Numbered from the stretch's first letter, positions 39,001 through 45,000 are shown. The stretch: 64,000 nucleotides of DNA from Alkalispirochaeta sp. (GCA_965601925.1 OZ271854.1:1056001-1120000); one strand, 5' to 3'. Program-made: the numbers.

Positions 39001-42000
39001 GGAGAGAGGGTGGCGCGCGATCTTTGTGATACGCGGCGCCCATTGCGGAATCTGTCGCGCCTATCTCGGCCAGCTTGAAAAGAGACGCTCCGCGTGGGAG
39101 ACGAGGGGCATCGATGTCCTCGTTGCCAGCGCCGACTCGGTGGAGAAGAGCCGCACATTCATAGCCGAGGCGGGGTACCGGGGACGCGCGGCGTGCGACT
39201 TGGACGTGCCCGCCATGCGGGCCCTCGGCCTGTGGATGACCGGGCCGGAGGCGTCGGAGCTCGACTACGTTCATCCCGAGCCCGGCTTTTTTCTGATCGA
39301 TCCCGACGGCAACGTGGCCGCCGCCGAGGCGTCGACCATGCCCTCGGTTCGACCGGACCTCGAGTGGCTCGATAAAAGTCTGACATACGTCGTCGAACAC
39401 GATGTGCGGCCGCCCTACGGCCGCTATGGGGTGGCGGCATGAGCGGACCACTGACGCGTAACGGAGAAACGGTCCTGCTCACCGGGGCGACGGGGTACGT
39501 CGGATCGGTTGTCGCCGAGAAATTGTGCAAAGCGGGATATGTGGTGCGAGGCCTCACGCGCTCCGAACGAAAGGCGCCCATCCTCGAGGCGGCGGGAATC
39601 GAGCCGATCGTCGGGGATGTCGGAGATATCGACCTCATGGCCGAGGCGGCAGCGGGCGTAAACGCGATCGTTCACACGGCGGCGCCGAACGCCCCGGTCC
39701 CGGGGGAGAGTATGGCGCAAATAATCGCCGGAGCGGCTCGCGCCGTGGAGCTGGCAGCCGATTTGGCCGCCACGAACAACGCCCGCCTGATCGTCACGAG
39801 CGGGGTCTCGTTATACGGGCCGACCGGGGGCCGCGTCGTAGACGAGACCGCACCGCTACAAACACCGCCGTTCGCCGCCCCCCTTGCCGAGGCGGAGACC
39901 ACATTTGCCGAACGGGGCCGTGCGTATGTCCTCCGGTTAGGCGTCGTGTACGGCCGCGATCAGAGCGCCCCGATGCGCGCGCTCATCGACGGCGTCCGTG
40001 AACGGGGTGCACCCGTCATGATAGACCACGCGAATCGACTTTCGGTTGCGCACGTCGACGATCTCGCGGACCTCTATACCGCTATTCTTGAGGCCGACGC
40101 ACCGCCGACGGTCGTGAACGGCGTCACCGCTATCCTCACGTGGCCCAGGGTGATGGACGCCGTCGCCACGGCGGCGGGTATCTCGGCGGAACCGGAAACC
40201 ATCACGGCGGAGGAAGCGGGAGCGTTGGGCGGTCCGGCGATATACATGGCTATGGATATGGCCGTCTCGGGCGAGCTGGCACGGCGGACCCTTGGATGGC
40301 TACCGAAAGCGCCGGACTTTGAAACCGATCTGACGAGAGGATCGTGAGGAAGCGTCCGCGGGTACGGAGCGCGACGCGCGGCCCGCTCCGCGGTTCTCAG
40401 CCTTCGCCGACGAGAGCGGATTCACTCCCCGCCTCGCCGGCGCAATGAACTCGCAGTAGTTACACGCGACGGTATGAGAGGGCGCGCGCCTTCTCGTACC
40501 CCAATATCTCGTCCCGCTTCAACTCCCCCGGATCGACCGAAGAGCCGAACCGAGCGGCGAGCTTAGCCTGCACCGTATCGCGAAACGCCTCCAAGGTCGG
40601 GCGCGCGCCGGTGAGCTCCTCGACGGAGGTCATCGGTTCGACAACCTTGTCCTTCACCTCCGGTGTCACCCATACCACCTTGAAAAAGTCGTCGGTTTTT
40701 AACGGAGCGAGGAAGACGACGCAGTTCACCACATAGAGATTCTCGATCTCGCTAACGAGAATCGTTGCAAGTTTTCTTCCGCGGGCGCGCACACTACCGC
40801 GATGTTTGTACCACGCCTCTTCGGCGCCCAGCTCGTGGAGCGTTTCGACCAACAGCTCACCGGCGGCGCGGAACGCCCCGTCGCCGGAGCCGAATGTGTG
40901 CTTGTCGACGACGAACTGGACGTTGGCGGTCGCCTCCGGGGTAAGGAAGACGAGCGTACGCTGACCGGTGATGATCACATGTTCCAACGCCGGCGTGTCC
41001 TCCCGGATCTCGTTGATCAGGTTGACGGAGCTCGCCAGGGTCACGATGGCACGGGCACCGGAGTCGTTGAGGATATGGGTGATCTCGCGCCCTTTGTACG
41101 TGGTATTGAAAGGCACCGCCGTACCGCCCAACTTCTGGATGCCGAAGAAGGTGTACACGAACTCCGGGATGTTGGGAAGCATGATCGCGACGCGATCTCC
41201 CGGCTCGATTCCGAGGCCGACGAGACCGTTTGCGACGCGATTGGCATTTTTATCCAACTCCTGATAGGTAATCGTCCGCCCGGCGACGCGCAACGCCTCT
41301 TTTTTCTTGTACGCGGCGGTGACGGTCTCGAGCATTCGGCCGATCGTCATCGGTTCGGTTACGGGGGAACTCATGATGCATCTCCTTGGGCGTCGGCTAC
41401 ATCGGATGAACGCTCGATCAGCCGGTCGTCGGTCGCCTCTCCGGTGAGCTCGCGGCGTAGGATTTTGCCGGTCGCGCTCTTTGGAAGGCTTTCGACGAAC
41501 TCGACGAGCTTGGGAACCTTGTACGCCGCCAGGTTGGCGTGACAGTACTCGGTGATGGCGCTCGTCTCGATAGTCTCTCCCGGTTTCAATACGACGAACG
41601 CTTTCACCGCCTCGCGGTCGCGCTTGTCCGTCACCGCGACGATCGCCGCCTCTTCCACCGCGGGATGGGTCATGATCGTCTCCTCCACCTCCCGCGGGGA
41701 GATGTTAAACCCGCCGCGAATGATGAGATCCTTCTTGCGATCGGTAATGAAGTAGTACCCGTCAGTGTCCCGATAGCCGAGATCGCCGGTGTGAAACCAC
41801 CCCTCCACGATCGCCTCCCCGGTCGCCTCCTCGTTTTTCCAGTAGCCCGGCGTAACGACTGCGGCGCTGATGACGATCTCGCCGACCTCGCCGTCGCCGA
41901 GGATGGTGCCGTCGTCGTCCATGATCGCCATCTCGACCGGTCCCGCGGGCGGCCCGATCGATCCCTCCTTGTACGCATCGCCGCTCGGATTGAGGCTGAC

Positions 42001-45000
42001 CGCGGAGGTCGTTTCAGTGAGGCCGTACCCCTCGTTAATGCGCGTCTGAAAGAGCTCCTCGAACTCGCGGATCGTCGTGACCGGAAGCGGCGCACCGCCG
42101 GAGACGCACGTATGGAGCGAGGTGGGGATCGATGTGTTTCGCACGCGCGCAAACTGCAACAGGTGCTGGTACATCGTAGGAATCGCGATGAGAATCGTGG
42201 CGTGATTCTCGCTGATCGCATCCAGAAGATTGCGTGGGGAGTAGTGCGAAACGAGGATCATCGTCGACGCATTGAAGAGTCCCGCAACCAACCCGTTGGA
42301 TAGTCCGTAGACGTGAAAGAGCGGCAGCACGAGCACGACACGATCGTCTTTGGTCATCTCGAATATCGTCGGGACGACCTCGGCGCACTGCGAATGGAAG
42401 TTGCGGTGAGTGAGCATCACGCCTTTCGGCTTGCCGGTCGTACCGGAGGTGTACAGCAACACGGCGGGCTGTTCGAGATCGACCTCCCTCGCCTTGAAGC
42501 GGTCGGAGGAGCGGACCATGAGCTCCGCCAAGTTGATCGTATCGACCGGCGCGGCGCCCGATCGGCCGCTTCGCGCCTGCTTCGCGACCGTGATACCTTC
42601 TTGCTGTGCGGCCTCTTGGTCTATGCGAAGGTCGGCGCCGGCTACCATACCCTTGCCGGTGACGCCCTGAACGACGACCGTGTCGGGCAACCGTTCATTC
42701 GACAACATATATTTACCGGCGATTCGCCCCTCCGCGAGGCCGGTTGCGTACGCGACGATATCCGCCGCGTCACCGTCGGGATTGTAGAGAAGTCGCCACC
42801 CCGGATGCGTTGCGTCGGATTCGGTCGAACCGTCGCCCTGTAGACTCTGCGTGTCTCGTCCCTCGGGACGCTCCGACGGGGCCGGTCGACCCTTTTTCCG
42901 TCTTCCGAATAGTGCCATCTTCAAAAATTATGCGATGAATAGGCGTAGGTCAATAAAAAAACGGTCGCCGACCGAGTTAAAATTATAAAAGGGGTCGTTT
43001 TGTGCCCGCGGTCACCTCGATGCCGCGTTCCACCGGCGCGTCCGAAAAGTCCACCCCGAAAGTTGGAGCACGAGACGGACGCCCGGCCGGCCGCCGCCGA
43101 CTTCGCCGACGGAGCAAGGTCGCCGTCGAAGCGATTGAAAAAAGAAGGCTCGACGTGGCGCTGTCTGTACGGGATCCTCCCGGGTATGATTCGGTCATAA
43201 CGTGACGGAGGTGTGATATGCAACGAGTACTCGGCTCATCGAATATCAAAGTGAGCGCCATCGGCATGGGTGAAGTGATCTGCGTCGAGAGGGAGCCGTG
43301 ATGAAGGAGAAACCGGTTATCACCGCCGGGGAGGCGGTGGGCCACATACGGAACGGCGATACGATCATGGTGGGAGGCTTCATGGGAGTCGGCTCGCCTC
43401 CGGGACTTCTACGCTCTCTCAGGGAGTCGGGACGACGGGATTTAGTTCTCGTCTGTAGTGACAATGGTCTGTACCTAGGAGACGAGGACGAGGCGACCGG
43501 CGTCGCGTTGAACGTGCGGGCGCGTCAGTTTCGCCGCATCGTCTCCAGTCACATCGGCCTCAACAAGGAGACGCAGCGACAGATGATAACGGGCGAGACC
43601 GAGGTCGAGCTCGTTCCTCAAGGAACGTTGGCGGAACGCATACGAGCCGCCGGTGCCGGTCTCGGCGGTATCCTCACCCCCACCGGTATCGGGACTGAGG
43701 TTGCCGACGGCAAGGACGTGCTTCGGGTCGCCGGCCGCGACTACCTCTTGGAGCTCCCGATCCACGCCGACGTGACCCTTATCCGAGCGGCCAAGGCCGA
43801 CAGAGGAGGAAACCTCACCTACGCCGCCTCGGCCCGGAACTTCTGCCCCTTGATGGCTACGGCGGGTCGTACCGTCTTGGTGGAGGCGGACGAGATTGTA
43901 GAGGTCGGAGCGCTCGACCCGGAGGAGATCGTTACCCCCGGGATCTTCGTAGACTATCTGATTCAACGCGATGCGGGAAATGCGGTATGACATACACTCC
44001 GGACAAGACGAAAATCGCTCGACGGATCGCCGGTATGTTTTGTGACGGTGATGTAGTGAACCTGGGGATCGGGTTACCCACATTGGTGGGCAACTACATT
44101 CCCGATGACGTGGAGATTCTCCTCCAGTCTGAAAACGGCTTCCTCGGTTTGGGGCCGCAACCGCCCGCGGGGGAGGAGAACCCCGACCTCATAAATGCCG
44201 GGGCCGTCCCGGTGACCATTCTTCCGGGCGGGTGCTTCTTTGATTCCGCAGTCTCGTTCGGTATCATCCGCGGCGGCCATATCGACTATACGGTCCTCGG
44301 TGTTTTGGAGGTCGACCAGGAGGGCAACATCGCGAACTACAAAGTACCCGGCACAATGGTGCCCGGTATGGGGGGAGCCATGGATCTATTGACCGGTGCG
44401 CGGACGGTGATTGCCGCAACGGTTCATTTGGATAAGTCGGGTAACTCCAAGATGGTTACGCGGTGCTCTTTGCCCCTCACCGCCGCCGGAGAGGTGAATT
44501 ACGTGGTTACCGATGTCGGGCTGTTTGAGGTGGGAGAACGTCACTTCATCCTCAAGGAGTATTTTGCCCCGGCGACTCCGGAATGGATTGCGGAGGTGAC
44601 GCACGCCTCGGTTGCCGTCGCCGCCGATTGCCGGGAGTACCGATTCTGATACGAAATATCGCGTTCTTTCGGTTGCCGGGATCGACGCCGAACTCGATAA
44701 GGGCGCATCGTGCTCCCGGCGCGACGGAATCCGGGACGTCCCGCGGGGGGACGAGTTAACCCTCCCCTCGGGCTCCACGCCGGTACCGTCGAGAGGTCGA
44801 AGCGTCGGAGTCGGGGTTCTCCGTGACCCGTCGGTACTAGTCTTTTCGCACGGTGCAACGTGCTCCGGTGTGTACTCCCGGCGGAAGTACGCGGTCCGGC
44901 TCACCCCGCACCGACGCCCGGGAACTACACAGCTCGGCCGCTGCGGTACGAAACACGTCGTCGGGATCGTGTCGTCCCGATCGTCTCCGTCGTAGAGGTC

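Follow-up and report, generated by a model that had tools for sequence, protein, structure and literature searches.

The acyl-ACP synthetase AasS is a single chain without an LplA domain, and in the acs-yjcH-actP operon of E. coli the small membrane protein is YjcH and the SSS-family member ActP. AasS is described as recycling outside fatty acids toward FAS II (PMC12086093), and acs-yjcH-actP as an acetate scavenging operon (PMC6498577). In interrupted NRPS adenylation domains of the a2-a3 type (KtzH and TioN families), the site before motif a3 is reported to tolerate insertions, the insert being an active methyltransferase within a single chain (PMC8341866). The known bipartite lipoate ligases are presented as split between the catalytic and the accessory domain (PMC10332631, PMC7186572, PMC7253636).

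The two adjacent genes described here, A and B, lie in a window of 64,000 nucleotides (the whole stretch of DNA analysed) from Alkalispirochaeta sp. Like AasS, they encode an ANL enzyme; as in the KtzH and TioN domains, a foreign domain stands in the ANL fold before the a3 P-loop (PMC8341866). However, the ANL part is of the stand-alone CoA-ligase type, the foreign domain is derived from LplA and is itself cut, both domains are spread over two genes, and no NRPS genes occur among the recurrent neighbours. The pair shares fold, ancestry and the catalytic Lys with Lpl(AB), bipartite LplA/LplB and LIPT1 (PMC10332631, PMC7186572, PMC7253636), but unlike the bipartite ligases it is cut within the catalytic domain, inside the lipoate-binding loop, has no accessory domain and carries substitutions at key residues. 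As in acs-yjcH-actP, an ANL ligase, a small membrane protein and an SSS permease form one operon at most loci, whereas this ligase is FadD-like, with an open GYG pocket motif, and split, and its transporter falls far below the ActP and MctP cut-offs. Unlike in FadD-like ANL ligases, the large N-terminal domain is not complete in one chain. No description of LplA/acyl-CoA synthetase fusions, split adenylate-forming heterodimers or reciprocal chimeric genes was found in the literature searched (mostly open-access, main texts).

Architecture of the Gene Pair

Gene A (515 aa; 41371-42918, minus strand) and gene B (304 aa; 40460-41374, minus strand) were confirmed as open reading frames and overlap by 4 nt, the start codon of B overlapping the stop codon of A (ATGA). 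The genome-wide survey's note had described A as an ANL ligase without its N-terminus and B as the missing ANL N-terminus joined to an LplA-type domain, and complementary Pfam and NCBIfam ranges bear this out. The Pfam AMP-binding model is divided exactly as reported there, with positions 3-124 on B (residues 17-135) and 151-384 on A (residues 122-360), and the best NCBIfam family of both proteins, again with complementary ranges, is PRK06187, a long-chain-fatty-acid CoA ligase. In database annotation both A and B appear as ordinary acyl-CoA synthetases.

Gene A encodes, in order, a low-confidence leader (residues 1-38), an LplA-derived N-piece (about 41-119), a 15-residue junction and the ANL motifs a3-a10 (about 126-495). 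Its ligase part (41434..42543, minus strand) is defined by motifs and by structure matches: the P-loop, GYGLTE, TGD and the a8 and a10 Lys motifs vary little or not at all across 61 A homologs, and the model matches ANL structures over residues 126-495 with Z up to 28.9. The piece absent from A is the ANL N-terminal part of B (residues 8-136; 40967..41353, minus strand), recognized by Pfam, NCBIfam and the model, in which residues 1-141 match ANL structures (Z 15.9, rmsd 2.9, 139 aligned). The ANL part thus ends on B at residue 136 and resumes on A at about residue 126, 30 residues before the P-loop.

The remainder of B (residues 137-300; 40475..40966, minus strand) is the LplA-derived C-piece, which is identified by LplA-B_cat, by the model and by alignment to residues ~81-245 of the intact LplA P0136. 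Model positions 75-199 of LplA-B_cat cover B residues 150-272 at 27.7 bits (cut-off 27). The earlier count of 35 of 35 B homologs with AMP-binding plus LplA-B_cat depends on the cut-off, because the precomputed Pfam threshold excludes many B homologs; at E<=1, LplA-B_cat is matched by 53 of 53 C-pieces (best 8e-11). Residues 138-304 of the model match the T. acidophilum LplA 2ars (Z 12.8, rmsd 3.2, 151 aligned), and the previously noted match to LipB 2qht was recovered at Z 12.3 (rmsd 2.6, 125 aligned) rather than 15.0.

The N-piece of A (residues 41-119; 42562..42798, minus strand) had been assigned to LplA without a significant sequence match. Profile-profile and hmmsearch matches, together with conservation, now align it with the N-terminal end of intact members of the LplA family (hhalign probability 97.5%, E 5.3e-12; hmmsearch 31.7 bits, E 6.6e-12 for one sequence), and the doubt about its identity is largely removed by this match. 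Against it count that the latter value becomes only ~0.01 if scaled to a library of 1.8 billion and that only 7 of 36 intact LplA relatives, retrieved with the B C-piece only, reach E<1e-4 with the N-piece. Profile searches of PDB sequences with either piece, and a Pfam search with the N-piece, returned nothing significant; a structure search with the whole of A was uninformative on this point, its matches being filled by the ANL part. The N-piece corresponds to residues ~3-79 of P0136, and the best intact relative is common to both pieces, which meet at its residues 79-81. In the N-piece an invariant insertion of 7 residues is new, and 4 residues of the G-x-Y-Q-D motif are missing. The lengths of the junctions do not vary among the homologs (61/61 for A, 119/119 for B). 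Overall, the reciprocal architecture of A and B is supported.

Since each gene encodes half of each enzyme, the two proteins would have to lock together to work. Modelling predicts an obligate 1:1 heterodimer with chains crossing at one point, which would rebuild one ANL acyl-CoA ligase and one LplA-fold domain. A new run of the A+B complex scored 0.85 against 0.00 for the best of three controls, close to the earlier ipSAE of 0.84, with runs agreeing in at least 94% of contacts and a partner pLDDT of at least 87. Of solved pairs, 116 of 157 reach the mark used, and of mismatched pairs 2 of 215; this calibration holds only roughly here because our own alignments fed the run, and split-domain halves can also pass because they resemble solved folds. 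The predicted contacts span both the ANL and the LplA interfaces. Trees of the segments correlate only moderately (Pearson 0.53-0.76), and we do not count this as co-evolution because kin share history.

Distribution and Origin of the Split

The B C-piece occurs in 66 of 99 genomes of the order, extending the earlier 32 of 51, and in 10 of 301 across the phylum; the A N-piece occurs in 68 of the 99. In 51 of 54 wide loci (the 54 include two duplicates of others), B is immediately preceded by an open reading frame with the N-piece; the survey had counted 20 of 20. The three exceptions are a locus at a contig end, one at a scaffold gap and one with a decayed remnant. An artefact or a local frameshift is ruled out by this recurrence of the two-gene layout. 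The second, diverged copy reported for this genome was placed at C1:2339591-2342068 and is 53% and 61% identical.

No fused single-chain form turned up: the 34 A-piece matches in the range of 283-902 aa were all of 468-515 aa, and the B-piece candidates of 533-2000 aa gave none either, a search that is weak for long proteins; plasmids searched with the B C-piece gave no match. The sequences point firmly to a single origin of the split. As for the "old reciprocal crossover" proposed earlier, the reciprocal architecture stands, and only the end product of the event is described. Reciprocal exchange is a presumed route to A and B, for neither ancestral neighbouring LplA and ANL genes nor a fused intermediate was found: the two loci of the closest intact LplA contained no ANL or SSS gene within 7-9 kb, mostly upstream.

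Loss of the Lipoate Ligase Site

The closest intact relatives of the pieces are LplA proteins of 350-410 aa with an LplB domain, Lpl(AB)-like and with a W-Y-x-H-x-G-D motif, not LipB/LipM. The chain cut falls inside their lipoate-binding loop (RRxxGGG), which is filled here with Gln, Arg and Thr. The R-R and G-x-G of this loop are found in 31-32 of 32 intact relatives, while at most one Gly is left per chain in the pair; a two-residue alignment shift could put the invariant R116 of A on the second loop Arg, the Gly run being lost regardless. The Asp of the N/G-D motif is conserved in 31/32 intact relatives versus 0/119 B proteins, and the Gly three residues after the catalytic Lys in 30/32 versus 3/119. 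B stops at about position 245 of the 365 of P0136, so that the LplB C-terminal domain is absent, and no LplB-like gene was found among the recurrent neighbours of the pair. There is also no Cys of the LipB/LipL catalytic type in invariant or 90% columns of either piece (C218 of B is Cys in 10/119). With the cut in the loop, other residues in place of the Asp and the Gly, and no LplB, the rebuilt domain is, judged from its sequence, an LplA fold and not a lipoate ligase. It would no longer ligate lipoate and would instead lock the chains together.

The catalytic Lys, K201, is nevertheless kept in 117/119 B proteins (Arg in 2), which fits a two-step octanoate or lipoate salvage: the ANL ligase would make acyl-AMP or acyl-CoA, and the LplA "half-ligase" would acylate a lysine of GcvH, E2 or another protein. 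This Lys is described as serving both steps in LplA (PMC7186572), LIPT1 as a half-ligase unable to make lipoyl-AMP, and adenylation as needing the C-terminal domain that is absent here (PMC7253636); the SSS family moreover includes a multivitamin transporter, to which the transporter of the operon has a weak match (E 3.4e-5). The refilled loop and the Asp and Gly losses argue against such a salvage, as do canonical LplA/LipB-family genes present separately in 96 of 99 genomes, the lack of a lipoyl-domain gene among recurrent neighbours, and lipoylation genes of this genome that carry no operator (see below). We consider it quite improbable.

Conservation is similar in the LplA pieces (mean consensus 0.69 and 0.67) and in the ANL parts (0.70 and 0.76). 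The predicted interface holds most invariant residues of the A N-piece and many of those of B, which, with the loss of the former catalytic motifs, would suit a purely structural relic, kept because neither chain folds alone. Such a relic is very improbable in our estimate, as Y189, H191, G193, R196, K201 and E239 of B show little or no variation without being listed in the predicted interface (absence from this listing leaves the status of a B residue uncertain), A has gained its invariant insertion, and no lineage among 34 A and 224 B matches has shed the pieces or re-fused the ligase. We favour instead a fold whose basic face (R116 and R119 of A; R139, H191, R196, K201 and N217 of B) probably binds CoA, acyl-CoA or the transporter.

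Operon Context and a Common Operator-like Site

The usual locus is a four-gene operon of a small membrane protein, an SSS transporter (PF00474), A and B, with the pair last. The SSS gene is directly upstream of A-B in 49 of 54 loci and the small gene is present in 44. Transporter, A and B occur together in 61 of 99 genomes and none of the three in 23; every genome with A has the transporter (68/68), and none has A without it. In each of the two genomes with two copies, one is a full operon and the other a bare A-B pair, and the copy in the window is without the transporter and small membrane protein genes. The transporter substrate is not given by sequence, because no NCBIfam cut-off is reached and PutP and PanF score above MctP (56-66 bits, cut-off 625) and ActP (23-37 bits, cut-off 750). 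For the small protein, DUF485 is matched at E 0.75 by one of 10 proteins, and DUF3311 is only a 0.82 Atlas lead (19% of that cluster).

In the window, a divergent two-subunit CoA transferase (AtoD/AtoA, ScoA/ScoB type; 43298..44649, plus strand) has its intergenic region in common with A; this gene pair is no conserved neighbour of A at other loci. The recurrent neighbours of A-B include no acp, lipoyl-domain, NRPS or other-acid catabolic genes. No riboswitch was matched by Rfam in 13 operon loci or in window positions 39000-45500, and no RNA holder is listed for the stretch.

A palindromic operator-like site of the TCGGT-N5-ACCGA type, with one mismatch, lies at 42961..42975 (no strand assigned). 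All of its 15 bases agree with those of the accB-fabZ intergenic site of this genome, and a matrix built solely from other genomes ranks it ninth genome-wide. A "terminator-like" hairpin at 42962-42974 proved to be this palindrome. The exact palindrome occurs in 17 of 42 operon leaders versus 0.02 in shuffles; against this, the site is missing or has at least two mismatches in 23 of the 42, including the full operon of this genome. Six of the top 16 sites of the genome adjoin accB/fabZ-fadD, fabD/fabH, acpP, fabV, a FabK-like gene and an acyl-CoA dehydrogenase gene, and the 16 also take in BicA, a TetR gene and A; counting against the module proposed below, seven of them have no evident fatty-acid link and the fadD-fadA-fadB (beta-oxidation) operon has no site. 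Across three other genomes, 6 of 10 strict sites adjoin acc or fab genes and 2 adjoin the TetR gene. Strict-pattern sites number 10 in five genomes in which the TetR was found (two of the five had none) and 2 in five in which it was not found. The TetR protein is a candidate regulator at the palindrome; no TetR fatty-acid regulon in spirochaetes was found described in the mostly open-access main texts searched.

A putative sigma-70 promoter was read by eye at 42925..42953 (minus strand; TTGACC at 42948-42953, 17 nt, TAATTT at 42925-42930), where a consensus promoter scanner made no call. The arrangement of site followed by TTGAC is also seen in the operons of the closest relatives. The putative -10 box ends 6 nt before the ATG of A, which suggests a leaderless mRNA. 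The window pair is a transporter-less copy that keeps the putative operon promoter and the operator-like site directly before A.

A carboxylate of another kind (an aromatic or dicarboxylic acid, or a vitamin precursor) could be the substrate, and the link to the operator would then be secondary. Feruloyl-, oxalyl-, succinylbenzoyl- and malonyl-CoA ligases are among the closest solved relatives of A, with similar scores, PanF and PutP are the best transporter models, and the operon is without the site in many lineages. We nonetheless regard this as rather improbable, as the best family of both halves is a long-chain-fatty-acid CoA ligase, the conserved site links the operon to acc/fab genes across several families, and no catabolic genes for other acids recur nearby.

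Proposed Function

The reading that we prefer, at a probability of roughly 50%, is that A-B is a fatty-acid uptake and activation module, in which the heterodimer is the ligase and the LplA fold a non-ligating clasp with a reused binding face. The split, the intact ANL motifs, the lost LplA motifs, the operon and the common DNA site can be read in the sequences; the substrate class, CoA as acceptor, coupling to transport and a ligand role of the LplA face are what we infer. The ANL ligase is predicted to be active, adenylating a medium- or long-chain fatty acid and forming its CoA thioester. In most genomes the pair would be the cytoplasmic half of an uptake-and-trap module with the SSS symporter and its small membrane partner. 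Because of this layout and the apparent regulation with fatty-acid synthesis genes, the most likely role of A-B is the salvage of external fatty acids as a lipid supply.

Alternatively, with heterodimer and transporter unchanged, the LplA fold may dock ACP or its phosphopantetheine arm. A-B would then be an acyl-ACP synthetase delivering imported fatty acids directly to FAS II, a role that AasS fills with another architecture. The common site marks synthesis genes and acpP, not the beta-oxidation operon, and this genome, which is 97% complete, yielded no member of the PlsX, PlsY or DegV/FakB families. LipB, which has the same fold, is described as binding holo- and octanoyl-ACP via phosphopantetheine, with a Lys contacting the 3'-phosphate of CoA (PMC9307952), and that Lys and several Arg are conserved in the pieces. 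Still, we think ACP docking unlikely: the nearest intact relatives are not LipB/LipM, the LipB RGG loop is the region destroyed in A-B, no acp gene occurs in any recurrent neighbour cluster, and the net charge of the pieces is not positive (-1 each). A broader scenario, in which one reciprocal exchange left an LplA fold that newly captures ACP or acyl-CoA (or acylates a protein lysine) and channels SSS-imported fatty acids into FAS II under an undescribed TetR regulon, is offered only tentatively.

A and B present a clear example from nature of two unrelated enzyme folds interwoven across a pair of genes, neither of which would be of use by itself, in an arrangement fixed once and kept across a bacterial order, its hosts being a group of free-living spirochaetes. 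They suggest a route to new protein architecture through reciprocal exchange, rather than fusion or single-chain insertion. The break offers a natural split point for ANL ligases, and the pair an apparent case of an LplA fold that became a pseudoenzyme. What the operon and operator suggest is an SSS-based route of fatty-acid uptake together with a regulon for fatty acids, for which we found no description in spirochaetes, and they make the function of A-B directly testable.

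An Acyl-CoA Ligase and an LplA-Type Domain Shared Between Two Genes

According to our analysis, two overlapping genes of the window each carry parts of the same two domains. Gene A (41371-42918, minus strand; 515 aa) consists of the N-terminal piece of an LplA domain followed by motifs a3 to a10 of an ANL ligase, and gene B (40460-41374, minus strand; 304 aa), which overlaps A by ATGA, joins the ANL N-terminus to the C-terminal piece of the LplA domain. The Pfam AMP-binding model is divided accordingly, positions 3-124 falling on B 17-135 and 151-384 on A 122-360, where AMP-binding_C follows; B 150-272 matches positions 75-199 of LplA-B_cat. 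The top NCBIfam family of both proteins was PRK06187, a subfamily of long-chain-fatty-acid CoA ligases, with spans of 6-142 on B and 128-523 on A, both under its cut-off. A diverged second pair (copy 2) lies at C1:2339591-2342068 of the contig. Elsewhere in the window, a 552-aa ORF (32973-34631, plus strand) had no Pfam match at E 0.001.

Named homologs belong to Spirochaeta, Alkalispirochaeta and further Spirochaetota. Among 99 genomes of the order, the B C-piece was present in 66 (39 of the 50 near-complete ones) and the A N-piece in 68; a phylum-wide sample of 301 genomes had B in 10, eight of which belong to one other family. An ORF with the A N-piece stood directly upstream of B in 51 of 54 wide loci (two of the 54 are duplicates); of the other three, one lies at a contig end, one at a scaffold gap of 100 N, and one is a decayed remnant. 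No single-chain fused form turned up among the A-piece hits or the B-piece candidates. The junction length was constant in all 61 A and all 119 B sequences, which points to a single origin of the split. A decayed A-B remnant with frameshifts and no transporter gene was seen in one genome (L080:8642-10212, genome G393), and A is frameshifted at locus L091 (genome G373).

Identity of the LplA Pieces

When 1.84 billion representatives were searched with a profile built from 53 B C-pieces, 69 proteins were retrieved, including intact proteins of 350-410 aa matched from residue ~81 on; the best intact match was P0136 (E 3e-25). All 12 intact relatives scanned were of the lipoate-ligase family with an LplB domain, and all fell under curated cut-offs. 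The A N-piece profile (49 sequences), which had no part in this retrieval, aligned to the first 77 columns of the intact-relative alignment (hhalign probability 97.5, E 5.3e-12). It scored 31.7 bits against P0136 residues 3-79, as against 6.5 bits for the top unrelated ORF among 3504 decoys, and gave E<1e-4 for 7 of 36 intact relatives; the match is significant within this small, independently chosen set and corresponds to about E 0.01 if scaled to the whole library. Since the A piece matches P0136 3-79 and the B piece aligns to 82-245, the pieces meet at residues 74-81, by alignment the lipoate-binding loop, described as RRDTGGGAIYLD (PMC7186572). The split domain has its closest intact source in a divergent subfamily of Lpl(AB)-like proteins that have W-Y-x-H-x-G-D, lack H-G-T and fall below every NCBIfam cut-off (P0136, P0140, P0142, P0143, P0145 and P0148-P0155; loci L111 and L112).

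The predicted structures agree with this assignment. B 1-141 is modeled as an ANL N-terminus (Z 15.9). For B 138-304, the matches are LplA 2ars (Z 12.8, rmsd 3.2, 151 aligned), LipB 2qht and biotin ligases. A 42-113 is predicted to fold as strand-helix-strand-strand-helix-strand, and A 126-495 as the ANL fold.

State of the Two Active Sites

In 61 A homologs, every ANL catalytic motif is invariant or almost so. The LplA site was compared with positions conserved in 30-32 of 32 intact relatives. The loop R-R and G-x-G are lost, being replaced by Gln/Glu, Arg and Thr on B and by Ser/Gln, Gly and Arg on A; the conserved Asp is kept in 0 of 119 B sequences and the Gly after the LplA Lys in three, four residues of the G-x-Y-Q-D motif are deleted, and the C-terminal (LplB) domain is absent from the pair. 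That domain is needed to make lipoyl-AMP, according to PMC7253636. The Lys itself is retained in 117 of 119 B sequences, and the LplA pieces contain no conserved Cys.

These pieces are about as well conserved as the ANL parts. R116, G118, R119 and a new K-Y-x-L-S insertion are invariant on A, and Y189, H191, G193, R196 and E239 are invariant or nearly so on B, part of these residues being inherited from the intact subfamily. Canonical LplA/LipB-family genes were found in 96 of the 99 genomes; they also occur in the present genome, one of them near GcvH. The LplA domain of A-B thus is, by the sequence features tested, not a lipoate ligase, and it is not decaying either.

At least 90% of A homologs carry a D-x-R-L tail after the a10 motif (A residues 497-500; region 41416-41430 of the window), possibly a contact to the transporter or the partner chain. 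Some of the proteins (A, 10 of 34; B, 21 of 121) have N-terminal leaders rich in F-G/K-K, which may be membrane anchors, by analogy with amphipathic targeting helices.

Predicted Complex and Possible Origin of the Architecture

The complex of A 38-500 with B was predicted with a score of 0.85 (best of three controls, 0.00), the runs sharing at least 94% of contacts with partner pLDDT of at least 87; predicted contacts link A 38-131 and A 133-238 with both halves of B. Of the solved pairs, 116 of 157 attained the mark, as did 2 of 215 mismatched ones. Because resemblance to solved structures can be enough for the halves of a split domain to pass, what the score supports is the geometry rather than binding in the cell.

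Topologically, the modeled product equals an ANL enzyme with a foreign domain ahead of motif a3. Interrupted NRPS adenylation domains use the same insertion site (PMC8341866), whereas here the product is cut into two genes, in the order LplA-N/ANL-C, then ANL-N/LplA-C. A possible route to this order is a single crossover joining an LplA gene with a circular or duplicated ANL gene.

The Transporter Operon

In 49 of 54 loci, the gene directly upstream of A encodes an SSS-family transporter (~510 aa, PF00474), and in 44 this gene is preceded by one for a 70-77 aa membrane protein ending in W-P-Y-R; two of the five loci without the transporter end before its position. Neighbour clustering revealed no further recurrent neighbours. 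Transporter, A and B occur together in 61 of the 99 genomes, none of them in 23 and a part in 15, mostly with contig ends or incomplete assemblies; no genome has A without the transporter. The layout is similar to that of the E. coli operon acs-yjcH-actP (PMC6498577), but by score the transporter is not ActP or MctP.

The pair in the window has no transporter, and the sole one of this genome sits with copy 2. The window pair groups with the full operons of congeners (72-78% identity) and not with copy 2. In genome G323, too, one full operon is accompanied by one bare pair. Copy 2 is flanked (L001:1180-19917) by genes for an amidase, a family III CoA transferase, a cyclase-family protein, a xanthine/uracil permease and a carboxyltransferase, and by an AllG/FdrA-like/AllH oxamate carbamoyltransferase cluster; only three close genomes share parts of this context.

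A -10-like hexamer stands 6-7 nt before the ATG, where a Shine-Dalgarno sequence is lacking, in the window copy (42919-42930) and in one clade, there upstream of the small membrane gene (L001, L071, L072, L074, L078 and other loci); this suggests leaderless mRNAs. AGGAGG is present in other clades.

A Shared Operator and a Candidate Regulator

The palindrome TCGGT-N5-ACCGA was exact in 17 of 42 operon leaders and present in 19 with one mismatch allowed (shuffled leaders: 0.02, maximum 1). A matrix was built from these 19 sites, all of which come from other genomes; with it, the site lying 43 nt upstream of A ranked ninth in the 5-Mb genome, where 11 sites scored at least 18 (permuted matrices, 0-4). 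Six of the top 16 sites adjoin accB-accC / fabZ-fadD, fabD-fabG-fabF / fabH, acpP, fabV, a FabK-like gene and an acyl-CoA dehydrogenase gene; one lies by a BicA-like bicarbonate transporter gene, one by a TetR gene and one is A's own, while seven have no evident link. Of five other genomes, three had matches to a strict pattern, 10 in all: six by acc or fab genes, two by the same TetR gene, one by a SulP gene and one by leuA. The matrix found no site at the fadD-fadA-fadB operon, the lipoylation genes or copy 2 of this genome. Beside the fourth-best site is a gene for a 364-aa protein (C1:2504980-2506071, L116:980-2071, minus strand) with a signal-peptide-like start and a weak Phenol_MetA_deg match (E 1e-4), which could be an outer-membrane channel for hydrophobic molecules.

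The TetR-family gene (C1:4760810-4761388, L119:2810-3388, minus strand), with the palindrome upstream, is present in 80 of the 99 genomes, and 11 of 20 TetR loci carry a site scoring at least 15. Operon leaders with a site occurred in 19 of 30 genomes having TetR and in 0 of 6 without it, in a hand count over kin that are not independent. This TetR is a candidate for controlling a regulon of fatty-acid synthesis (acc, fabH/D/G/F, fabZ, fabV, acpP, bicA), of which the literature searched, with few subscription papers, gave no description.

Proposed Function

Most likely, the SSS transporter and its small partner would perform Na+-coupled fatty acid uptake, and the A-B heterodimer would adenylate the acid and form a thioester, thus trapping it, with the LplA fold most likely clamping both chains together. 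The operon would most likely be co-regulated with FAS II, so that the acyl product would serve lipid supply. A basic face is predicted to be kept on the LplA fold; it may bind CoA or acyl-CoA, by analogy with the LipB Lys that contacts CoA (PMC9307952). Alternatively, this face may bind ACP, and A-B would then be an acyl-ACP synthetase. In this genome, which is 97% complete, no member of the PlsX, PlsY or DegV/FakB families was found, and a fadD-thiolase-3HCDH operon is present at about C1:1927000-1932500.

The literature searched (few subscription papers covered) gave no description of such an interlocked pair, and the main text of PMC10332631 mentions neither spirochaetes nor acyl-CoA ligases. 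The A-B pair is a variant on interrupted ANL domains and on ligase-symporter modules, in an architecture for which we found no precedent. If the LplA fold proves to hold a new activity, this would be a categorically new system.
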